The notes beneath the pieces were generated by a model. It was not told where the DNA came from and did no database searches. It saw nothing but the letters and a program-made list of their open reading frames with translations. 64,000 nt of DNA. Origin: an uncultured Candidatus Rokubacteria bacterium. GTDB lineage: Bacteria; Methylomirabilota; Methylomirabilia; Rokubacteriales; CSP1-6. The stretch lies in assembly GCA_963747235.1 (NCBI GenBank), contig CAVVEU010000040.1:256001-320000 (forward strand). Reading direction: 5' to 3'. Position numbers and translations under genes: made by a program. This document shows, one piece after another, positions 44,675 through 55,406 of the stretch; positions within the stretch are counted from its first letter, which is position 1; each line of letters opens with the position of its first letter.

Positions 44675-46232
44675 CTAGCGCCGCCGCAAGGCGAACCGCT
44701 GGATCTTGCCGGTCGTGGTCTTGGGCAGCTCGGCCACGAAGTCCACCCAGCGCGGCGACTTGTAGCCCGCCAGGCGCTTGCGCACCAGCGCCTGCAGCTC
44801 GGCGGCGAGCGCGTCGGTGCCGGGCTCGCCGTCGCGCAGCACGCAGAAGGCGTGGGCCTTGGTGAGCCCGTCGGCGTCCCCGCGCCCGACCACCGCGGCC
44901 TCCAGCACCGCCGGGTGCTCGCCCAGGCACGCCTCGATCTCGACCGGCGACACCCACATACCGCCGACTTTCAGCATGTCGTCGCCCCGGCCGCAGAAGT
45001 AGAAGTAGCCGTCGGTGTCCTGGTAGAACATGTCGCCGGTGCGCAGCCACTCGCCCTGCATCGTGGCCCGGGTGCGCTCGTGGCGGTTCCAGTAGTACGC
45101 CGCGGTGGAGTCGCCCTTGATCAGGAGCTGGCCCACGAAGCCCGGCGCCACCGGCCGGTCCTGGTCGTCCACCAGCCGCGCCTCGTAGCCCGGGATCACC
45201 CGCCCACTCGAGCCCGGCCGCGCCTCGCCCGGCCGGTTGGCGATGTAGTCGTGCAGCGCCTCGGTGGAGCCCACCACGTCCAGCAGCTCGTGGCCGAAGC
45301 GCGACTTCCAGGCGTGGAAGATCGCCGGCGGGCAGCGCCTCGCCGGAGGACACGCAGAGCCGGAGCGAGGAGAGATCGAACCGCCGCTCCGCCCCTTCGA
45401 CCTGCAAGAGCCGGCGATACATGGTGGCCACCGCGAACAGCATGCGTGGGTCGCTCGGCCTGGATCAGCTCGAAGATCGCGCTCGGCCTCCAGGCGCTCC
45501 GGCACCAGCACCGACGCGGCGCCCACCAGCGCCGGGAAGTAGAGCGAGTTGCCGAGGCCGAACGCGAAGTGGAGCTTCGACGCCGAGAAGATCACGTCGT
45601 CCGCCGCGATGCCGAAGGTCCCCCGCCCCACCCGCTCCGCCGCGTGGACCAGGTTGCGATGCAGGTGCACCGCGGCCTTCGGGCGCCCGGTCGAGCCCGA
45701 GGTGTAGAGCCAGAGCGCCACGTCGTCGCGGCTCGTGTCCGCCGCGGCCAGCTCGGGCGAGGCCTTCTCCAGCAGCCGCTCGTACTCGAGCGCGCCGCGC
45801 CGGCGGCCGCCCACCACGATCACGCTCTCCAGCGCCGGGCACTGGGCGCCGGATCTTCAGGATCTCGGCGGCGGCCGTCTCGGAGGCGATCACCGCCCGG
45901 GCACGGCTGTCCTGGAGCAGGAACGCCAGCTCCTCGGCGGGCAGCGCGTCGCTCACCGGCACCGGCACCGCGCCGATCTTCATCGTGCCCCAGAAGGCCT
46001 CGGCGAACTCGGGCCGGTCCGGCAGGGCCAGGAGCACGCGCTGCTCCATCTGGACGTCGCGGGCCAGGAGCGCGTTGCCGAGACGGTTGGCGCGGAGGGC
46101 GATCTCGCCGTAGGTGACGTCGCGGCCGGCGAAGCGGAAGGCGGTGCGGGCGCCGCGGCCCTCGGTGACGTGGCGGTCGAGGAAGTGGGTGGCGGCGTTG
46201 AACCGATCGGGGACGTCGATGGCCGCCGCCAT
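44675..46232 (-). CDS. Benzoate-CoA ligase family protein (frameshifted)
   Basis: [33 protein letters not shown]. Confidence 0.88.
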
Positions 46233-46321
46233 GCGCCCGATTCTAGCAGCACCTCCCCGATCCGCGCGCTCTTGACTGCCCCGCGGCGTCGGGCACGCCG
46301 GGGCCCTCGAGCCCGACGGAT

Positions 46322-47173
46322 CTAGAGGGCGCGACCGATCCGATCGTGGCGGAGGTAGTGGAGTGAGCCGTCCCACGACCAGTAGATGACGAAGACTCGA
46401 CCGACGATCTTGTCCCGCCGGATGACGCCCCAGTATCGGCTATCCTGGGAGTTGCCTCGATTGTCACCCATCACGAAGTACGACCCCACCGGCACCGTGA
46501 CCGGCTCGCATCCGTATGCGAACTCGCACCGGCCGGCGAGCGGCACGCCGGCGCCCTTGAGGTAGGGCTCGGCGAGCAACTCGCCGCCGATGTAGACCTC
46601 ATTGCCGCGGACGAGGAGCTGATCGCCCGGCATGCCAACGATCCGCTTGACGAAGTCCCGCCGCTCATCCTGCGGGTACTTGAAGACGATGATGTCTCCG
46701 CGCCGGGGCGCCCCGCCGCGATAGACGGAGTTGTCGGTCAGCACGTAGTCACCGATGAGCAGGGTCGGCTCCATCCCCGCGGACGGAATCGTGAACCCCT
46801 GCGCGCCGTGGGCGCGGTAGTACGCTCGGAGCGGCGCGTCGATCGCCCAGCCGCCGACCAGGATCGCCACCCACGCGACGAGCACAACCTTCCACGACAT
46901 CCGGCCGGCGGGCATCAGCCCTGTGTCCATCACGCAGACCAGGCGTGTCACGATCCCGAACGCGACGATCCCCACGAGGGTCCAGAAACTGACCGGGAGG
47001 AGAACCAGGAGGCCCAGACCAATAACTGGCGCACCAACCGCCCAGGCCACGCCGCGCCGATTGCGGCCCAGCAGGAAGTGTCCGGATCCCGGCGAGACGA
47101 GCGACAAGACACACGCGACTACACGCCGCGTGCGCTCGAAACGCTGCCCCTTGATCTCTTCCCGTGAACCCAT
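46322..47173 (-). CDS. Signal peptidase I homologue with N-terminal membrane extension
   Basis: IPSAGMEPTL, FVKRIVG, GDNRGNSQDSR. Confidence 0.88.
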   Translation of the reverse strand: MGSREEIKGQRFERTRRVVACVLSLVSPGSGHFLLGRNRRGVAWAVGAPVIGLGLLVLLPVSFWTLVGIVAFGIVTRLVCVMDTGLMPAGRMSWKVVLVAWVAILVGGWAIDAPLRAYYRAHGAQGFTIPSAGMEPTLLIGDYVLTDNSVYRGGAPRRGDIIVFKYPQDERRDFVKRIVGMPGDQLLVRGNEVYIGGELLAEPYLKGAGVPLAGRCEFAYGCEPVTVPVGSYFVMGDNRGNSQDSRYWGVIRRDKIVGRVFVIYWSWDGSLHYLRHDRIGRAL

Positions 47174-47276
47174 CGTCCTCCTTCCCGGCGGGACGCTCTT
47201 CAGGCAACGCTAGTCGTCGCATCCTTACTTTGTCCAGGCTCGCGTGCCCTTACACGGTGGTCACCACCAGGCGCGC

Positions 47277-47372
47277 CTACCTGGTCGTGAAGAAGTAGTA
47301 GTCCGCCGTGTAGTTGATGCGGGCCGAGGTCCCGGCGGTGGCCTCGGAGCAGCCCGTCGTGGGCACGACGCT
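47277..47372 (-). pseudogene. 3' remnant of a DUF3455-like gene
   Basis: Reads VVPTTGCSEATAGTSARINYTADYYFFTTR*, resembling the DUF3455 C-terminus; no start codon or upstream body. Confidence 0.6.
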
Positions 47373-47422
47373 CTGATCTACCTCTTCCGCGTCTTCAAAC
47401 CGCGCTAGGGCAGCTTCAGGTG

Positions 47423-50400
47423 TCATCTGAGGGCCTCGATTTCCACCGCCGTCTGCTCCAGCCAGAACTGCATATCCATCTCGCGGTAGCTCGCCGTCGC
47501 CATGGTGAGGTACTCGCGGGCCTGCGCGAGCCTGTCGGTACGCCGATAGAGCTTGCCGAGGCCGAGGTGGCAGTGGGCGACGAGCGGGCGCATGCCGCGC
47601 GGCTCGGCGAGCGCCAGGGCCTCGCGATAGTAACCCTCGCCACGGTCGGCGTCGAAGCAGTCGGAATGGGTCGCGATCTCGCCGAGCAGATGTATTGCAT
47701 GGGCAACGGTGCCACGGCGAAACGAAGTGTCTCTGACCGCGCGTTCGCTCAGACTCCGCGCCTCGTCGAGCCGGCCGAGCAGGAAAGCCGCCTGTCCCAG
47801 CGACATGAGACCTCCGACGCCACGCGCCGGCGAACGTTCGAGGAGCTGCTCGCCCTCGCGGAGTTGGGTCAGCGCCTCGGCGGACTCGCCGAGCTGGGCC
47901 AAGATCCAGGCGGACGAAGCGATGGCGGCCGGGAGGTTGAGCACGACGTTTCCCGCTCGAACCACGGCAATCCCACGCTCGACCAGTGAGTTCGCCTTCG
48001 CCCAGTCACCTTTGTGGAGGTCGATCCAGCTCGCGCAGAAGTAGGCTTCGGCGATGGTGAACGGGCGCTGCGTTGGCTCCGCGAGCCGGAGCACGTCCGC
48101 CGCATAGTGGGTGGCTTCCGCGAATCGGCCGAGTTCGGCGAGGCTGTACACGAGCCACAGGCGATTGTAGGCCGGGATCGGCATGCTGATGCTTCCCGGC
48201 TCGTCGACCCAGTCGGCGGGCAACGCCGCGAGGTTATCGGTGGCCAGCTCGACCGCCCGGGCGAAGTCGCCCCGATAGAAGTGGGTCTGCGCGAGATAGG
48301 TCGTGGCCCATATCTGGATTCGCAGGTCCCCGGAACGTACCGCAATCTCCAGCGCGCGGGCGCCAGCCACCAGCGCCTCGTCCAGCTCGCCGAGCAGGGC
48401 GAGGACGTTCACCATGAACAGGCGGACACGCCCCCGCCTGCGGTCGTCGTCCAGGCGCTCGGCGAGGACCTCCGCCTCGCGTAGCCGCTCGAGCACCTGC
48501 CGCACACTACCGAGCAGGTTCAGCACCCGTCGAAGCTCGAGGCGGACATCGAACCCCTGCTCCAGTGTGGACGAGCTTTCCGGCAACCTGTCGAGTACGG
48601 CCAGGGCCTGCTCGAAGCAGACCCTGGCTTCCTGGAGCGCCGACCGTTCGGCCGCCTTGAGTCCAGCCCGCCTGAGATACGGGACCGCCATCTCCCATGC
48701 CTCGGCGCAGAGCGCGTGATGGGCGAGCCGCTCGATGTGCTCCCCGAGACGATCTCGGTAGAGGCGTTCCATGGTCTCCGCGATCCGAGCGTGGAGGCTG
48801 CGCCGCCGATCGGCAAGGAGGCTCCCATAGGCCATCTCGTGGGTCAGCGCGTGCTTGAAGCTGTAGGCGAGATCGGGGAAGAGAGACGCCTCATGGACGA
48901 ACTCGGCCGCTTGAAGATGAGCCAGCCCACGACGGAGCGTCTCCTCGCTCTCGTCCGCGACAGCCTGCAGGAGGGTGAGGGGGAAGTCCCTCCCGATCAC
49001 CGCGGCAATCTCGAGGAGCCGCTTCTCCCCGGCCGGCAGGCGGTCGATACGCGCGGTCAAGATGGCCTGCACCGTGCCGGGCACCTGGATTGCGGGCAGG
49101 TCGTGCGCCAGCTGGTACTTGCCGCGCTCGCCCGTCAAGGCACCCGTCTCGGCCAATGCCCGGACGCTCTCCTCGACGAAGAGCGGATTGCCCTCCGTGC
49201 GCTCGATCAGGAGCTGCTTGAGCGGACCCAGCCCGGGGGCGGTCCCGAGGAGCACCTCGAGCAGCACTTCGGCACTCGGCCGTGGCAGCGGGTCGATCCG
49301 GAGCTGGGTGTAGGAGGTCTGGCCGGGCCCGCCATGCGAATACTCGGGCCGATGGCTGACGAGCAGCAGGAGTCGCGCACCCGGGAGGCTCTCGAACAGG
49401 GTCTCGAGCAGCGCCTGCGTCGCGCCGTCGATCCACTGCAGGTCCTCGAACACGAGCGCCAGCGGCTGCACCTGGCTCTCCCGCAGCAGCAGGCGCTTGA
49501 GAGCATCCAGGGTCCGCCGCCGGCGCCCGCCGGGGTCGAGCGCGTGCCATTCCGGGTCGTCCACCGGGACGTCGAGCAGGGTGAGGAACGCCGGCAGCGC
49601 GACCTCGAACGCCGGGTCCAGGGCGAGGATCTTGCCGGTAACCTTCTCGCGGATCGCGCGCGGGTCATCGCGCTCGCCGATCCCGCAGTAACCCTTGAGC
49701 AGGTCGATCACGGGGAGATAGGGCGTGGTCTTGCCGTAGGGGACGGCGCCCGCTTCCAGCACGAGCCAGCCGGCGACGTGCACCGAGTGGGTGAACTCCC
49801 ACAGAAGGCGTGACTTGCCCACCCCGGGCTCCCCGACGACGGCCACCGCCTGGCCATGCCCGTGCGCCGCGGCAGCCAAGCGGCCCCGCAAGACCTCGAG
49901 CTCGTCATGACGTCCGACGAACTGCGTCATCGCGCCCCACAGCCCCAACCCTCCGCGTTCCTGCCCCGTGAGGCGATAGATCTGGTCCGCGCTCCCGGCT
50001 CCGCCGCCGATCGGGACGAGCTCGAACCGGCGCTCCAGGAAGGGCGCGGCGCCTGCACTCGCCACCGTCTCGTCCGTCCCGGCGGTCCTCAGGAGCTGAT
50101 CGAGGAGCGGCCCCTGCGCGCGCTGCGCATCCGCGTCGATGTCGAGACCGCTCGCCGAGCGGGCAACGAGAACTTGAGCCACGTGTATGCCGATCTTGAC
50201 CCCGGGCAGCCCGCTCTTGTCCCCGTGGGCGCGCCCGGCGGTCTTGTGAATGACGATCGCGGTGTGTGCAGCGCGCCGCGGCGCATCCTCGACCGGATCG
50301 ACCCCGAACGAGGCCACGACCCTGGTCGGGGTCAGCTCTTCGACGCGGCCGCCGAACGTCTGCAGCTTGTCGATCACGACCTCGAGCGCCCGGCTCGTGT

Positions 50401-51511
50401 GCGTCCTCGCGTCGCCCCCGTCCGGCTCCCCGAGGGCGGCGCAGAGGAGCGTGATCCGCCGGCGTTCCCACTGAATCTGCGTGCCCGTGGGCGCCGGGGC
50501 CATGGCGGACGCGGGCCGAGCGCGGCGGTGGGGATGACCGCGATGGCCACGCACGCCGTACTTCTCGAGGCGCGCGTAGAGCGTGTTGCGCGCGATACCC
50601 AGCCGGGCCGCGGCGTGCGAGATGTTCCCCGCACTCTGCTCCAGCACACCCGCGAGATACTGGCGCATCACCGCTTCGGGCGTGACGGCGCCGGCGCTCG
50701 CGCCGACCGCGGGAGCCGCTGGGTGGGTCGCTTCCGCGGACAGCGGCTCCAGCATCGCTCCGGTGACCACGGGAGAATCGGCGAAGAGCGCCGCGCGCTC
50801 CATCACGTTGGCGAGCTCGCGGATATTCCCGGGCCAGCGATAGGCGAGCAGGCGGGCCAGCGCCTGCTCGCCCAGGGTCTTCGGCGGCAGCCCATGGTCG
50901 GCGCAGGCGCGGGCGAGGAACCGCTGGGCGAGGAGGAGCACGTCGCGCCCCCGTTCCCGCAGCGCGGGCATGTCGAGCGTGATCACCGCCAGCCGGTGAT
51001 AGAGGTCCTCCCGGAAGCGCCGCGCGCGAAGAGCCGCCCGCAGGTCGGTGTTCGTGGCACTGATGAAGCAGACGTCGACCGCCTCCGGCCGGGTGCTGCC
51101 GAGGCGGCGGACGACACGCTCCTCGATGACGGTGAGGAGCTTGGCCTGGGCCGATTCGGGCAAGAGGCCGACCTCGTCGAGGAAGAGCGTGCCCCGGTGC
51201 GCAGTCTGAAGGAGGCCGGGCTTGGCGCGGCGGGCGTCCGTGAAGGCGCCCTGCTCGAAGCCGAACAGCTCCGCTTCGAGGAGCGTCTCCGGCATCGCCG
51301 GGCAGTTGATGTCCACGAACCGGCCGTCCTTCCGTGGCCCCATGCGATGCACGAGCCGGGCGACGAGTCCCTTGCCGGTGCCGGTCTCCCCCTGTAGGAG
51401 GATCGCGGGCAGGCGGCCCCCGGCCGGCGGGTGCTTCAGGAGCTGGCGCAGCTTCTCCCGGACGGCGTTGATAGCCGGGCTCTCACCGAGCAACTCAGCC
51501 AGCCCTTCCAT
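47423..51511 (-). CDS. sigma54 activator AAA+ + Fis-HTH + degenerate class III cyclase + STAND NTPase + TPR fusion (1362 aa)
   Basis: GETGTGK, ELFGFEQGAFTDA, LFLDEVG, RFREDLYHRL, WPGNIREL, HTH LGIARNTLY; FVGR..GEPGVGKS, FEDLQWID, GNPLFVEE; helical repeats. Confidence 0.9.
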   Translation of the reverse strand: MEGLAELLGESPAINAVREKLRQLLKHPPAGGRLPAILLQGETGTGKGLVARLVHRMGPRKDGRFVDINCPAMPETLLEAELFGFEQGAFTDARRAKPGLLQTAHRGTLFLDEVGLLPESAQAKLLTVIEERVVRRLGSTRPEAVDVCFISATNTDLRAALRARRFREDLYHRLAVITLDMPALRERGRDVLLLAQRFLARACADHGLPPKTLGEQALARLLAYRWPGNIRELANVMERAALFADSPVVTGAMLEPLSAEATHPAAPAVGASAGAVTPEAVMRQYLAGVLEQSAGNISHAAARLGIARNTLYARLEKYGVRGHRGHPHRRARPASAMAPAPTGTQIQWERRRITLLCAALGEPDGGDARTHTSRALEVVIDKLQTFGGRVEELTPTRVVASFGVDPVEDAPRRAAHTAIVIHKTAGRAHGDKSGLPGVKIGIHVAQVLVARSASGLDIDADAQRAQGPLLDQLLRTAGTDETVASAGAAPFLERRFELVPIGGGAGSADQIYRLTGQERGGLGLWGAMTQFVGRHDELEVLRGRLAAAAHGHGQAVAVVGEPGVGKSRLLWEFTHSVHVAGWLVLEAGAVPYGKTTPYLPVIDLLKGYCGIGERDDPRAIREKVTGKILALDPAFEVALPAFLTLLDVPVDDPEWHALDPGGRRRRTLDALKRLLLRESQVQPLALVFEDLQWIDGATQALLETLFESLPGARLLLLVSHRPEYSHGGPGQTSYTQLRIDPLPRPSAEVLLEVLLGTAPGLGPLKQLLIERTEGNPLFVEESVRALAETGALTGERGKYQLAHDLPAIQVPGTVQAILTARIDRLPAGEKRLLEIAAVIGRDFPLTLLQAVADESEETLRRGLAHLQAAEFVHEASLFPDLAYSFKHALTHEMAYGSLLADRRRSLHARIAETMERLYRDRLGEHIERLAHHALCAEAWEMAVPYLRRAGLKAAERSALQEARVCFEQALAVLDRLPESSSTLEQGFDVRLELRRVLNLLGSVRQVLERLREAEVLAERLDDDRRRGRVRLFMVNVLALLGELDEALVAGARALEIAVRSGDLRIQIWATTYLAQTHFYRGDFARAVELATDNLAALPADWVDEPGSISMPIPAYNRLWLVYSLAELGRFAEATHYAADVLRLAEPTQRPFTIAEAYFCASWIDLHKGDWAKANSLVERGIAVVRAGNVVLNLPAAIASSAWILAQLGESAEALTQLREGEQLLERSPARGVGGLMSLGQAAFLLGRLDEARSLSERAVRDTSFRRGTVAHAIHLLGEIATHSDCFDADRGEGYYREALALAEPRGMRPLVAHCHLGLGKLYRRTDRLAQAREYLTMATASYREMDMQFWLEQTAVEIEALR

Positions 51512-51539
51512 GGCCGGCTAGCCTACTCGCCTGCTCAAG

Positions 51540-51574
51540 TCACTGCTCAGATTTCCGAACACTCTGAGCAGTGA
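51540..51574. promoter_or_regulatory. 12-bp perfect inverted repeat, putative upstream activator site/operator
   Basis: TCACTGCTCAGA-N11-TCTGAGCAGTGA; extra half-site CTGCTCA at 51531. Confidence 0.65.
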
Positions 51575-51643
51575 TCGGCCGCGCTGCCGCCGGCCGCGCG
51601 CCGCAAGTCCTCGGAATGCCTCGAACCAGGGCGGTCCACGAGA

Positions 51644-51659
51644 TGGAACGCTTTGCGCA
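51644..51659 (+). promoter_or_regulatory. Candidate sigma54 promoter
   Basis: TGGAACGCTTTGCGCA = GG-N10-GC; lacks TT before GC. Confidence 0.45.
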
Positions 51660-51744
51660 TCCTTGGATACCGGAGGGCAGGTGCGCGGAGTGTCCGCAGG
51701 CGGTCCTTCTCGAACCAATCACTTCGATCCAAAGGAGGAAACAG

Positions 51745-52182
51745 ATGCGCTCAGTCAGAAGTCTCCTGGTGGTGACCGGCACCATGTTGGCGCTCGCGAT
51801 CCTCACCCCATCGCGGCCCTCTGCCGCCGACGGACCCGTTACCATCGTCATAGACAAGGAATGCTCTGAATTCACCGGCAACGTCCCCAGCTTTTGCACG
51901 ATCACCGGATCGACCTTCTCCGCGATCCCTGCGGGAACCAAGGTCCTCTACTGGGGGCCGCTGATCAGCGACCCCGACTACACTAGCAGCGTGGTCGTCA
52001 TCAACGCCGGGCGCGGCAACAGAGCGACCGGTTACTGCAGCCTCCTGGGCGATGTCGGAGCGTGCTCATTCTGGGAGGGGAGCGGGACCTTGCGGGGGTT
52101 TCATGCAGCCTTCCAGGTCACGCATCCCGGCGGACCAAACTTCATCTGGACCGGGACGTACCGCTTGGACCATCAGCGCTGA
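51745..52182 (+). CDS. Small secreted beta-rich protein with four Cys
   Basis: AAGGAGG RBS; signal peptide; KECS..FCTI and GYC..GAC; Gly-rich strands. Confidence 0.8.
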   Translation: MRSVRSLLVVTGTMLALAILTPSRPSAADGPVTIVIDKECSEFTGNVPSFCTITGSTFSAIPAGTKVLYWGPLISDPDYTSSVVVINAGRGNRATGYCSLLGDVGACSFWEGSGTLRGFHAAFQVTHPGGPNFIWTGTYRLDHQR

Positions 52183-52251
52183 GCTGAAGCGGCCAGCGGC
52201 AGCGGATCGCCCGTTACCGCCCGGCAGGCCTGTTCCGGTACGGCTCGAGAG

Positions 52252-52278
52252 GGAGCCGGGGACGTGATCCCCGGCTCC
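52252..52278 (+). terminator. Hairpin (probable terminator)
   Basis: GGAGCCGGGGA cgtga TCCCCGGCTCC followed by TT. Confidence 0.5.
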
Positions 52279-52634
52279 TTCGCGCCCGCCGATGGAGGCG
52301 TCTTCACGCGTCGGCGCGGCACCACCAGCGCGGCACGAATCAGGCCGGCCACCCGGGCCCGCGCGTCCTCTAGGTTTCGCCCCTGGTTGCGCGTGACCTG
52401 GCTGACGACGACCAGGTGTCCGTCGGCGTCGAGCCGGTTCTGCGCCAACCGGTAGAGCCGCGCCCGTGCGTCGTCTGGCAGACCCTCGATCGCGGGAAGG
52501 TCCACGCGCAGATCGATCTTGATCGAGACCTTGTTGACGTTCTGGCCGCCCGGCCCCGAGGCCCGCGCCGCGTGCACGTGGAGCGCGGAGGCCGGCACGC
52601 GGACGTCCGCGGTCACGACGATCGGGTCGGCCAT
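52278..52634 (-). pseudogene. arfB: Truncated duplicate of arfB lacking the basic C-terminal tail
   Basis: MADPIVVTADV...SGPGGQNVNKV... matches 54471-54902 up to SAGAK, then diverges. Confidence 0.8.
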
Positions 52635-52952
52635 GGCGCGGGCCCGGTGGGAAGCTCGGCGTGGAGCGCGGTGACGAACTCGTCGGGCCGCCTCGGCGAG
52701 AGCACGACGAGCCCGCCGCGGGTGGGCAGGTACACTAGGTCGTCGGTATTGGTGATCGCGAGGTAGTGCCAGCCGGTGCGCGGATTCCAGCGCGGCCCGT
52801 GGGAGCAGAAGAGGTCGTTGACGCCGGCGGCGCGCAGGCCGCCGATCGCGCGCGGCTCGCGATCGCAGCCCGTGATGCACTCGTAGGGGATGAGCTTGCG
52901 CGCCCAGCGGCGCTCGAGCCGCAGGCCGCCCTCCTCGAGGGTGTAGCCGCTC
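52613..52952 (-). pseudogene. 5'-truncated duplicate of the PH-like membrane protein gene
   Basis: SGYTLEEGGLRLERRW...PWPTRSS* matches 54881-55222; N-terminal TM part absent. Confidence 0.8.
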
Positions 52953-52991
52953 TCGTCGCGAAGCCTCGCCAATAGGCCGCCCTTCCCCCGA

Positions 52992-53023
52992 TGGCCCTCT
53001 CCCCTGCGACGGGGAGAGGGCCA
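52992..53023. repeat. REP-like hairpin (CCCTCTCCC family)
   Basis: tggccctctcccc tgcgac ggggagagggcca. Confidence 0.8.
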
Positions 53024-53119
53024 GATGAGCCGGACCGGCCCTCGAGCGCTTCCGGCCACTCCGTCCGCAAGAAACCGCGAGTGCCAGCGTCGTCCTGGCG
53101 GTCTACCATAGACCTCGCC

Positions 53120-53170
53120 ATGACCGACCTCCTCGCCGCCCGCTCGCAGATGGCGATGCCGCTCGGCTTC
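53120..53170 (+). pseudogene. cydA: 5' remnant of cytochrome bd oxidase subunit I
   Basis: MTDLLAARSQMAMPLGF resembles the CydA N-terminus (..LLAARxQMAxSLGFH); similarity stops abruptly. Confidence 0.55.
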
Positions 53171-53220
53171 CTCGGTGGCTGGGCGCCCGCCCAGTACCCC
53201 AAGCAGTCCCCGGCCCGGCC

Positions 53221-54069
53221 GTGAGCCTCACCGTCTTCTCGCTCGCGGTCCTCTTCACGTCGGTCGGGGCGGGCGCGGTCGGCTCCATCCTGGGCCTGGG
53301 CGGCGGCATCCTGCTGATCCCGATCCTCACGATCTTCTACGGGGTGGATCTCCACTACGCGATGGGGGCCAGCATCATCTCGGTGATCGCCACGTCGAGC
53401 GGCGCGGCCGCCTCGTACCTGCGCACCGGGCTCAGCAACCTGCGCGTCGGCCTCTTCCTGGTCATGGCCACCATCAGCGGCGCGCTGGTGGGCGCGCTCC
53501 TGGCCGGGGTGGTGCCGGTGCGCGCGCTCGAGCTGATCCTGGGCCTGGCGCTCTCCTACTCCGCGTTCACCACCATCCGGCAGCTCCACGACGAGCTGCC
53601 GGAACACCTTTCCGAAGATCGCCTCGCGCTCCGCTTCGGCCTCGAAGGCCGCTACCACGACCTCCGGCTGGAGCACGAGGTGGCTTATCGAGCCCAGCGG
53701 GTGGCCCCGGGCTTCGTGGCCATGTTCGGGGCGGGCCTGCTTTCGGGCATGCTGGGCATCGGCAGCGGCGCGTTCAAGGTGCTCGCCATGGACTACCTCA
53801 TGCGGCTCCCGATGAAGGTCTCGACCGCGACCAGCAACTTCATGATCGGCCTCACCGCCTCGGCCAGCGCCGGCATCTACTGGAGCCGCGGCGACATCAA
53901 CGTGCTGATCGTCGCGCCGGTGGCCATGGGCGTGCTGGCCGGGGCGTACCTGGGGACGATGCTGATGGCGCGGATGCGCAACACCACCGTGCGGAAGCTG
54001 TTCCTGCCCATCGTGGTGTACCTGGCGCTTTCGATGATCCTGCGTGGCCTGGGCATCCACCTGTTATGA
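53221..54069 (+). CDS. Sulfite exporter TauE/SafE family
   Basis: LGLGGG, GIGSGAFKV, STATSNFMIG. Confidence 0.9.
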   Translation: MSLTVFSLAVLFTSVGAGAVGSILGLGGGILLIPILTIFYGVDLHYAMGASIISVIATSSGAAASYLRTGLSNLRVGLFLVMATISGALVGALLAGVVPVRALELILGLALSYSAFTTIRQLHDELPEHLSEDRLALRFGLEGRYHDLRLEHEVAYRAQRVAPGFVAMFGAGLLSGMLGIGSGAFKVLAMDYLMRLPMKVSTATSNFMIGLTASASAGIYWSRGDINVLIVAPVAMGVLAGAYLGTMLMARMRNTTVRKLFLPIVVYLALSMILRGLGIHLL

Positions 54070-54470: not shown

Positions 54471-54902
54471 TCAGTCCCCCTCGCCCGGCCGCGCCCGCCA
54501 GCGCTTCACGTTCGCCCGCCGCTTCTTGCCCGCCAGCCGCCGCCCTTTCGCGCCCGCGGAGGGCCGCGTCTTCACGCGCCGGCGCGGCACCACGAGTGCG
54601 GCGCGGATCAGCTCGGCCACGCGGGCGCGCGCGTCCTCCAGGTTGCGCGCCTGGTTGCGCGTCACCTGGCTGACGACCATCAGGCGCCCTTCCGCGTCGA
54701 GCCGGTTCTGGGCGAGGCGAAGCAGGCGCGCCCGCGCGTCGTCGGGCAGCCCCTCGATCGCGGGCAGGTCCACGCGCAGGTCGATCTTGGTCGAGACCTT
54801 GTTCACGTTCTGGCCACCCGGCCCCGACGCCCGCGCCGCGTGCACGGTCAGCGCGGAGGCCGGCACGCGCACGTCCGCGGTCACGACGATCGCGTCGGCC
54901 AT
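54471..54902 (-). CDS. arfB: Ribosome rescue peptidyl-tRNA hydrolase ArfB
   Basis: SGPGGQNVNKV, RNQARN, basic tail RRLAGKKRR. Confidence 0.92.
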   Translation of the reverse strand: MADAIVVTADVRVPASALTVHAARASGPGGQNVNKVSTKIDLRVDLPAIEGLPDDARARLLRLAQNRLDAEGRLMVVSQVTRNQARNLEDARARVAELIRAALVVPRRRVKTRPSAGAKGRRLAGKKRRANVKRWRARPGEGD

Positions 54903-55406
54903 GGCGCGGGTGTCGCGGGCAGTGCGGCGTGGAGCGCGGTGACGAACTCGTCGGGCGCGGCTCGGCGAGAGCACGACGAGGCCACCCCGAGTGTGGACGA
55001 ACACCAGGTCGTCGGTATTGGTGATCGCCAGATAGTGCCAGCCGGTGCGCGGGTTCCAGCGCGGCCCGTGCGAGCCGAAGAGGCCGTTGACGCCGGCGGA
55101 GAGCAGGCCGCCGATCGGGCGCGGCTCGCGGTCGCAGCCGGTGATGCGATCGTAGGGGATGAGCCGCCTCGCCCAGCGCCGCTCGAGGCGCAGGCCGCCT
55201 TCATCGAGCGTGTAGCCGCTCGGCGCGAAGCCCTGGATCATCCAGAGCGCGCCCAGGAACGGCAGCGGCAGGATGAGCAGGCTCGCGTCGCCGGAGCTGG
55301 CGACCAGCGCGACCGACAGGAGAAACGGCCCGCCGAAGCCGAGCCCGATGCCCACCACCCCGGCGAGGAGTCGCTGCTTTCGCCCGAGGACGGCCGGGAA
55401 GTGCAC
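54881..55406 (-). CDS. Membrane protein with bacterial PH-like domain (frameshift near 54957)
   Basis: Two TM helices, then GYTL..GLRLERR, GVNGLFG, VVLSP..PDEF. Confidence 0.7.

Follow-up and report, generated by a model that had tools for sequence, protein, structure and literature searches.

A predicted sigma-54 activator fused to a STAND-TPR module, and the small gene it faces, in an uncultured Rokubacteria bacterium

We analysed a stretch of 64,000 nucleotides (hereafter the window; G+C about 70%) from an uncultured Candidatus Rokubacteria bacterium, in which a gene for a 1362-aa regulator lies divergently to a gene for a 145-aa predicted secreted protein. The window is part of contig C40 of a metagenome-assembled genome (MAG; GenBank GCA_963747235.1) of 5.57 Mb in 42 contigs, which is 88% complete with 4.9% contamination and holds rpoN as an intact 477-aa frame. 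A first-pass annotation, made from the letters of the window, had described the regulator as an intact open reading frame (ORF) that opens directly with the AAA+ domain of a bacterial enhancer-binding protein (bEBP) and has no receiver, GAF or PAS domain. Both statements agree with our results. The frame is the longest at the locus (Table 1), an upstream extension is impossible since the ORF already begins at the first start codon after a stop, orthologues begin at the same residue (MEELAELLGESPAIN, MDELAQLLGESPAIN), the Sigma54_activat match starts at residue 8, and no receiver, GAF or PAS domain was reported in the Pfam scan.

The N-terminal part of the regulator has the build of a sigma-54 activator. 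Pfam places Sigma54_activat at residues 8-179 (E 3.4e-57, profile positions 2-167 of 168) and AAA_lid_14 at residues 185-264, followed by HTH_8, a Fis-type helix-turn-helix (HTH) domain (E 3.7e-10). Residues 1-320 align end to end with the solved structures of ZraR, NtrC1, NifA, FleQ and PspF (E to 7.5e-61), and the Walker A, Walker B, R-finger and sensor II elements expected of Sigma54_activat were all located. The sigma-54 contact loop is a GAFTDA variant in which F and T are kept, as it is in 117 of 121 family proteins. The same variant is given for DVU2106 of D. vulgaris, among loop variants that the authors of that study expected to retain activation (PMC4641369), and we predict that the loop of the regulator serves as its sigma-54 contact loop.

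Behind the activator, the regulator follows the tripartite order of a STAND protein, from an effector through a nucleotide-binding oligomerisation domain (NOD) and an arm to a C-terminal repeat sensor. The NOD matches PF13191 (AAA_16; E 3.3e-30) and combines a GxxGxGKS-type Walker A, present in about 118 of 121 family proteins, with an acidic Walker B. A GNPLF motif, which is typical of the STAND class, lies in the arm. Residues 1025-1260 are covered by TPR_12 (1.2e-16) and TPR_MalT (1.3e-11; 1025-1256) matches of the tetratricopeptide repeat (TPR) type. All motifs that the first-pass annotation had named for the two ATPases, GNPLF included, could be located, and four of the five profiles by which it had proposed to search the protein (Sigma54_activat, HTH_8, AAA_16 and TPR) found their domains. 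Moreover, residues 328-1184 match positions 263-1134 of NCBIfam TIGR03903 (E 3.5e-83); at 280.2 bits against a cut-off of 705.75 the regulator is not a member of this family, and the match starts at profile position 263, so the regulator has no kinase. A sequence search of residues 521-1362 against solved structures gave weak TPR matches only (LGN/Pins), neither MalT nor AfsR.

Between activator and NOD, after a poorly conserved linker of about 28 residues (319-346), lies a domain that had been called cyclase-like, a description which stands for the fold and not for the enzyme. The fifth profile, Guanylate_cyc (PF00211), gave no match to the regulator at E<0.01, and when the middle domain was searched by sequence against solved structures, the matches were at chance level, with no solved cyclase among them. 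The AlphaFold model of residues 330-540 (pLDDT 78.9, pTM 0.75) retrieved class III adenylyl/guanylyl cyclases in every listed row of a Foldseek search (best E 5.6e-12, TM 0.6-0.75; 188 matches at E<=0.001), and by this model the domain has a cyclase-homology fold. In an alignment of 13 rows, comprising the window protein, ten family copies and two true-cyclase paralogues, both metal-binding Asp positions are lost: FADL and GDG of the true cyclases read CAAL and PTR in the window protein. Across 121 family proteins the first metal position reads RAD in 20, RAA in 14, CAA in 11 and other triplets in fewer, with 41 unmatched by the search pattern. Because the metal-binding Asp positions are lost and PF00211 finds no match, we classify the domain from its sequence as a pseudo-cyclase and not as a cyclase in the enzymatic sense. 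A homodimer model of the pseudo-cyclase scored 0.72 against 0.00 for the best control (0.72, 0.68 and 0.72 in three runs, which share at least 62% of their contacts with a partner pLDDT of at least 77); of 30 solved homo-pairs, 20 attain the score mark used, as does 1 of 23 proteins solved as single chains, and the pass may reflect memory of solved cyclase dimers instead of independent evidence. The model favours a symmetric dimer, and the pseudo-cyclase is probably a dimerisation module.

The intergenic span was confirmed as 51512-51744. Within it lie a perfect inverted repeat (12-N11-12), the only one of its kind in the window (0 expected), and a -24/-12 element facing the small gene, whose transcript start is predicted near 51670; the palindrome is centred about 110 bp upstream of this start. 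The palindrome is conserved across the window and the loci L015, L044 and L026, and the same three loci have the -24/-12 element at the same place, where it reads TGGCACGCCnTTCGCT in L044 and L026, one mismatch from the consensus. We infer that the palindrome is a candidate enhancer (upstream activating sequence) of the HTH dimer. By analogy, it probably also mediates autorepression of the regulator, which we propose because the palindrome abuts the regulator's own putative promoter; pspF is likewise autorepressed. Inspected by eye, the regulator strand (51512-51540) has a TAnnnT hexamer about 8 nt before the regulator ATG and TTGACC/TTGAGC about 16 nt upstream of that, both at the same place in L107-L126, and the regulator genes have no ribosome-binding site. 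This arrangement suggests a leaderless or near-leaderless sigma-70 transcript; the sigma-70 promoter scan of 47000-52500 called no site, and thus not this element either.

Table 1. Features of the regulator locus and related loci of the same genome (positions in the window unless a contig is named; residues are those of the regulator).
Feature	Position	Strand	Remarks
Regulator gene, 1362 aa	47423..51511	-	longest open frame at the locus; stop codon 47423-47425
bEBP AAA+ module, residues 8-264 (Sigma54_activat + AAA_lid_14)	50720..51490	-	Pfam, motifs, solved-structure alignment
Walker A GETGTGK, residues 41-47	51371-51391	-	
GAFTDA loop, residues 88-93	51233-51250	-	
AAA+ Walker B LFLDEV, residues 109-114	51170-51187	-	
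R-finger region FREDLYHRL, residues 166-174	50990-51016	-	
Sensor II WPGNIREL, residues 226-233	50813-50836	-	
Fis-type HTH_8 DNA-binding domain, residues 283-318	50558..50665	-	Pfam
Predicted pseudo-cyclase (cyclase-homology domain), residues ~347-520	49952..50473	-	alignment, model, Foldseek
STAND NOD (AAA_16), residues 530-716	49364..49924	-	Pfam, motifs
FVGR, residues 531-534	49910-49921	-	
STAND Walker A GEPGVGKS, residues 560-567	49811-49834	-	
STAND Walker B VFEDLQWID, residues 687-695	49427-49453	-	
Helical arm between NOD and TPR, residues 717-1024	48440..49363	-	covered by the TIGR03903 match; named arm by analogy to MalT
GNPLF in the arm, residues 774-778	49178-49192	-	
TPR / MalT-like TPR sensor region, residues 1025-1362	47426..48439	-	Pfam; lowest conservation among the folded parts
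Perfect inverted repeat TCACTGCTCAGA-N11-TCTGAGCAGTGA (12-N11-12)	51540..51574		29-63 nt upstream of the activator start codon
-24/-12 element TGGAACGCTTTGCGCA	51644..51659	+	GG 51645-51646, GC 51657-51658; faces the small gene
Target gene, 145-aa predicted secreted protein	51745..52182	+	four invariant Cys
GC-rich hairpin, 17-nt arms	52246..52284	+	64 nt past the stop codon of the small gene
Own-genome paralogues of the regulator/STAND family	C25:49901-54005, C13:45054-49125, C14:286350-289013 and others		loci L003-L013

The promoter layout could be followed through the family. We searched upstream of other family copies for divergent -24/-12 elements with at least 9 of 12 consensus positions and both the GG and GC cores. 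Such an element lies 99-178 nt from the activator start in 10 of the first 12 copies, the two exceptions being a tandem second copy and one copy with its element at 327 nt. Among 20 further copies from other genera, 13 have the element at 111-145 nt; of the other seven, three carry it at 246-311 nt, two have an 8-of-12 version at about 112 nt and two have none. Combined, 23 of 32 copies show a same-orientation element at a stereotyped distance of 99-180 nt from the activator start, and the chance of such a motif is 0.02 per 80-nt span, as calculated from its density over 1.8 Mb of strand. The first-pass annotation had supposed that the regulator switches on the neighbouring gene through sigma-54 and had named the conservation of the divergent gene and its promoter as a check. 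Close orthologues do keep the divergent secreted gene and its promoter; together with the presence of rpoN, the conserved palindrome and -24/-12 element and the family-wide layout, these sequence patterns leave the predicted wiring from regulator through sigma-54 to the neighbouring gene well supported.

The other copies have a common cassette layout, which we describe by eye. Immediately beyond the putative regulator promoter, where the palindrome lies in the window, paralogues carry palindromically arranged ACTG(C/G)T(C/A)A half-sites; an A+T-rich tract comes next, and then the -24/-12 element. The putative operator of an own-genome paralogue reads ACTGGTAA-N5-TTACCAGT; compared with it, the palindrome arms of the window group stand one helical turn further apart. 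Our scan of target genes covered 20 of 30 candidate ORFs at 12 loci. Five of these 20 encode ROS/MucR zinc-finger regulators (L108, L112, L115, L119 and L122), as does L011 in the same genome as the window, which suggests a two-step transcription cascade. Further targets are SoxY-like, family-5 solute-binding proteins, a secreted beta-helix/NosD protein and an RsbW-like kinase, while eight ORFs belong to no family, several of them with hydrophobic N-termini. Three copies face other ORFs without a Pfam family, whose N-termini are hydrophobic and signal-peptide-like, at L015:3283-3759 (-), L074:3317-3814 (-) and L032:2548-3861 (-), which encode 159, 166 and 438 aa, respectively. Exported proteins thus recur as targets across family copies, and the secreted barrel described below appears from sequence comparison to be the target of one orthologue group, not of the whole family.

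The product of the small gene fits the earlier description of a divergently encoded 145-aa secreted protein: a strong Shine-Dalgarno sequence, GGAGG, at 51734-51738 precedes its ATG by six bases, and by inspection its N-terminus is signal-peptide-like. The protein has no match in Pfam, NCBIfam or PADLOC. Its close relatives form 24 clusters, all hypothetical, in which the four Cys are invariant. A profile search with the protein extended to 613 clusters at E<=0.001 (261 at <=1e-10), and none of 34 sampled clusters carries a Pfam family on the homologous domain; against solved structures, the profile gave chance-level matches only. The structure model is an eight-stranded barrel, although only one of five models was confident (pLDDT 75 vs 38-49), and Foldseek returned a weak match to a dirigent protein (E 5.5e-3). 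Structure alignment placed the model closest to 2q03 (DUF3224-like; Z 11.7, rmsd 2.8 over 105 residues), followed by the Cyc15 Diels-Alderase (Z 10.3), a dirigent domain (Z 10.2), allene oxide cyclase (Z 9.8) and pyocyanin demethylase (Z 9.4). An Atlas lead pointed to a DUF3224-containing cluster (score 0.89) in which 11% of the members carry that family. We tentatively regard the small protein, on the basis of the model, as a secreted barrel of the small-molecule-binding type. The GC-rich hairpin behind the gene may be a terminator, in which case the target would be monocistronic; the hairpin lacks a T-run and was not called by the terminator scan of 47000-52500, whose sole terminator-like site falls inside a neighbouring gene.

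Homologues of the small protein occur in 7 of the 251 genomes of the phylum. The gene lies divergently beside a fused regulator in the window and in four of the six other genomes; one of these genomes has another secreted ORF ahead of it. Two genomes that belong to a different family of the phylum do not have the homologue beside a STAND-fused activator: G242 has none within 7 kb, and G236 has a plain activator of 40% identity.

The fused regulator is far more widely distributed. PF00158 and PF13191 occur together in 118 of its 120 best database relatives, which are 51-82% identical, mostly 1350-1415 aa long and carry generic names such as 'sigma 54-interacting transcriptional regulator'. Among species-representative genomes, full-length matches were found in four Rokubacteria-like loci (72-79% identity), L015 among them, and in a betaproteobacterial MAG (46%); in a deltaproteobacterial MAG the match is limited to residues 4-899 (42%). 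Within the phylum (Rokubacteria/Methylomirabilota), 191 of 251 genomes match the regulator at E<=1e-100, in a tally that scored two candidates per genome and includes G076, G216 and G217, which are flagged as unpublished and on which no single statement made here depends. A hand count of 150 listed phylum matches gave about 101 single-frame copies that span residues <=6 to >=1310, three of which contain one stop. An identical 878-nt contig from a soil metagenome (run X1, which may be the source sample) crosses the junctions of AAA+, HTH and cyclase domain. Judged from these sequences, the regulator belongs to a widespread family and is neither unique nor one-off. In the genome of the window itself the family is strongly expanded: three further activator-STAND fusions, one of which (C13:45054-49125) is interrupted by frameshifts or stops, occur together with nine or more cyclase-STAND-TPR paralogues that lack an activator module.

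The mean identity of 112 full-length family proteins to the window protein is 0.75 in the AAA+ domain, 0.74 in the HTH, 0.70 in the NOD, 0.59 in the pseudo-cyclase, 0.54 in the TPR region and 0.38-0.42 in the linkers. This profile fits two working ATPases with a variable, possibly diversifying sensor and flexible tethers. Two of the loci deserve separate mention. L015, from a record titled Nitrosotalea sp., an archaeon, carries a 75% identical regulator, the same operator and promoter and a small protein of 81% identity; the contig is Rokubacteria-like and has almost certainly been misbinned. L016 holds two full-length fused regulators in tandem (L016:1586 and L016:5772), which share 78-79% of their first 330 residues with the window protein, with the divergent small gene and promoter at the first copy only.

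bEBPs are active only as hexameric rings (PMC2941729), and in STAND proteins the binding of an inducer to sensor and arm brings about multimerisation and the change from the closed, ADP-bound to the open, ATP-bound form (PMC4381067). We propose, with confidence that is evenly balanced, that the protein is a one-component sigma-54 regulator with a MalT-like STAND sensor, in which ligand-driven STAND assembly builds the AAA+ ring by induced proximity. At rest, a regulator dimer would sit on the 12-N11-12 palindrome beside its own start codon, held together by the Fis-type HTH and the dead cyclase-homology domain. A cytoplasmic ligand would then bind the TPR/arm sensor, upon which the STAND nucleotide-binding domain would open, exchange ADP for ATP and oligomerise. 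The STAND oligomer would raise the local concentration of the AAA+ modules on their flexible linker of about 28 residues until the hexameric ring closes. Through its GAFTDA loops and ATP, the ring could open sigma-54 holoenzyme at the -24/-12 element about 90 bp away, leading to transcription of the divergent gene for the small secreted protein, while the regulator would repress its own promoter through the abutting palindrome. The assembly step, from TPR ligand through STAND oligomer to AAA+ ring, is modelled on MalT and the enhancer-binding proteins. DNA binding at the palindrome, ligand sensing and control by assembly instead of relief of inhibition are the parts that we infer. A broader version, which we advance with more hesitation, is that two oligomerising ATPases may act in series, the STAND platform being a template for the sigma-54 AAA+ hexamer on DNA; the paralogues, each with its own TPR sensor, operator variant and divergent promoter, might then form a modular repertoire for intracellular ligand recognition in Rokubacteria.

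Several points speak against this proposal. The -24/-12 element of the window has three mismatches, and matches with up to three mismatches are not rare in this GC-rich window (42 found, 91 expected by shuffles); the match alone means little, and its weight comes wholly from position and conservation. Nine of the 32 family copies have no motif at the stereotyped place under our threshold, and the copies are mutually related, which means that the counts overstate independence, though many genera show the pattern. Similar half-sites are found again in paralogues from this genome; either specificity would lie in a few bases and the spacing, or something else binds the element. The only RNA run with words in common (X20, share 0.06) contained only pieces of 90-95% identity, all on the conserved AAA+ region, and says nothing on transcription of the locus. 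Activators made of AAA+ and HTH alone, PspF for example, show constitutive activity and are under negative control, and the C-terminal module may thus inhibit instead of assemble. Moreover, the order of this STAND oligomer need not match a hexamer.

The alternative that fares best likens the regulator to PspF. The AAA+/HTH part would be active by itself and be kept dimer-locked or occluded by the C-terminal part of pseudo-cyclase, STAND and TPR, from which ligand and nucleotide exchange would release it; we regard such relief of inhibition as a serious, if less likely, alternative. The N-terminal 320 residues make up a complete minimal activator without a regulatory domain of its own, and the predicted pseudo-cyclase dimer could keep the AAA+ domains apart, in the way that the receiver domains of NtrC1 and DctD hold their AAA+ domains apart in a fixed dimer. 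Furthermore, a closed, autoinhibited resting state is described as general among STANDs (PMC4381067). However, STAND effectors are typically activated by induced proximity and not by mere release, and the fact that about 118 of 121 proteins retain the Walker motifs of the NOD suggests that the oligomerisation/ATPase cycle itself matters. Because neither model needs a trans-acting inhibitor, sequence alone cannot separate assembly from inhibition, and both fit equally well.

It is improbable that the pseudo-cyclase is the true sensor, binding ATP, GTP or cyclic nucleotides from the cyclase-STAND paralogues, with the STAND/TPR part as a scaffold or partner platform. The many cyclase-STAND-TPR paralogues without an activator in this genome would suit such a role, as would the moderate conservation of the domain and the Asp that some members retain at the first metal position (the RAD group, 20 of 121). 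Yet the variation of both metal-binding Asp positions among family members speaks against a conserved nucleotide pocket, and NOD and TPR are kept as well as in bona fide STAND regulators.

The first-pass annotation had also considered an anti-phage function. In this case the TPR region would act as an NLR-like immune sensor that recognises a phage or other foreign protein, with a sigma-54 defence transcript as output. Many prokaryotic STANDs are reported to detect phage proteins (PMC13581612), and several paralogues with variable TPR regions occur per genome. The sole PADLOC matches are CARF-AAA-HTH (RtcR-like) models, in which a sensor is likewise joined to this sigma-54 motor. These RtcR/PspF-type matches are however confined to residues 19-320; nothing in the 2023 library, including its Avs and NLR models, matched residues 330-1362, and the suggestion drew no backing from the STAND part. 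Moreover, the genes around the regulator are of housekeeping type (signal peptidase, ABC transporter, AMP-binding enzyme, TauE), and the paralogues have as targets MucR regulators, solute-binding proteins and exported proteins of small size, none of them a known toxic effector. We therefore rate an immune role as very unlikely. That the gene is an assembly chimera, as the first-pass annotation had allowed for, or a decaying, functionless gene is hardly credible: the MAG has the completeness and contamination given above and one paralogue of the same genome is frameshifted, but the frame is intact with conserved motifs, nearly all of the best relatives are fused, full-length copies are numerous in independent assemblies, and an identical, independent contig spans the junctions.

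Other features of the neighbourhood touch the regulator less directly. On the minus strand, like the regulator and 250 nt downstream of it, stands a gene for a signal peptidase I (S26; 46322-47173), whose product has an N-terminal extension of about 115 residues. An operon of this peptidase with the regulator of a secreted protein was considered and rejected, as no S26 gene other than the window's own was found in the 106 loci L001-L106, orthologous loci included; its position next to the regulator is probably coincidence. Two nearby genes, 52176-53059 (-) and 54474-55406 (-), each pair a bacterial PH domain (bPH_5) with a peptidyl-tRNA hydrolase domain of the RF-1 type; in the first of them the two domains fall into overlapping ORFs of different frames (52176-52880 and 52616-53059), which a frameshift may explain. 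The Rfam scan of 46000-54000 gave no match.

Enhancer-binding proteins and STAND NTPases are among the best-studied classes of assembly switches, and each has been studied alone. With a natural fusion that has about 100 full-length copies in one soil phylum, it could be tested directly whether STAND oligomerisation can gate a second ATPase ring. To the sigma-54 system, the regulator would bring a sensory module of a new kind, located on the C-terminal side of the DNA-binding domain; for the cyclase-STAND proteins, it would be a signalling protein rewired from second-messenger output to transcription, with the cyclase left as a structural relic. Since the cassette of regulator, operator, -24/-12 promoter and target is stereotyped and compact, it could easily be moved to a reporter host and give a first handle on ligand sensing in the uncultured Rokubacteria. 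Should relief of inhibition be the true mechanism, a well-defined new family of enhancer-binding proteins would still remain. If instead the two ATPases do work in series, the 'effector' of an NLR-like machine of the inflammasome or resistosome kind would be a transcription motor, whose targets are often a MucR-type regulator or a small exported protein.

Compared with known systems, the small protein may resemble the dirigent, allene-oxide-cyclase and DUF3224 barrels, to judge by its eight-stranded barrel model, but no relation to them was found at the sequence level, and the predicted signal peptide and two probable disulfides are peculiar to its own family. The N-terminal part of the regulator is like the enhancer-binding proteins NtrC, PspF, ZraR, NorR and RtcR, with a full Sigma54_activat AAA+ domain, its lid and a Fis-type HTH. 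Its locus shares with pspF-pspA the divergent layout of regulator and target, the upstream palindrome and the -24/-12 promoter, all of which are established for that pair. In enhancer-binding proteins the usual sensory modules are N-terminal, among them receiver, PAS, GAF, PRD and V4R domains (PMC12316311), and RtcR has CARF as its N-terminal sensor in the PADLOC models. In contrast, the sensor of our regulator would lie C-terminal to the HTH, comprises about 1000 residues and is itself a predicted oligomerising NTPase, and the contact loop reads GAFTDA, not GAFTGA.

By their sequence, the C-terminal 1035 residues belong with the cyclase-STAND-TPR proteins such as Rv0386 and TIGR03903, with which they share a cyclase-homology domain, FVGR, a P-loop NOD and TPR in the same order. 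Mycobacterial Rv0386 is described as a class III cyclase followed by a MalT-like ATPase, TPR and a LuxR-type HTH (10.1101/2024.03.06.583649). The regulator differs from the TOMM kinase/cyclase fusion of TIGR03903 in scoring below its cut-off, in having no kinase and in the loss of the metal-binding Asp, and from the cyclase-STAND-TPR proteins in general by the activator and HTH added in front, which would have moved the output from cyclic nucleotide synthesis to transcription. Our literature search found no description of a sigma-54 activator fused to a STAND NTPase; supplementary tables, such as those of enhancer-binding protein architectures in PMC12316311, lie outside that search and may list the fusion.

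The first-pass annotation had seen in the protein a one-protein switch from an NLR-like sensor to transcription. The concept is not new, as MalT, GutR and AfsR are STAND transcription factors, given as non-immune STANDs in PMC13581612; what is new, to the extent that we have not found it described, is the sigma-54 output, the presence of both modules in one chain and the sensor C-terminal to the HTH. Like the regulator, the MalT, LAL, GutR and AfsR class combines in one polypeptide a P-loop NOD, an arm and a TPR-type sensor that control a DNA-binding activator. In that class, however, the output is DNA binding only, of the LuxR or SARP type, and acts on sigma-70 holoenzyme, whereas the regulator described here carries an N-terminal sigma-54 AAA+ motor with its own HTH, and a predicted pseudo-cyclase between this output and the NOD.

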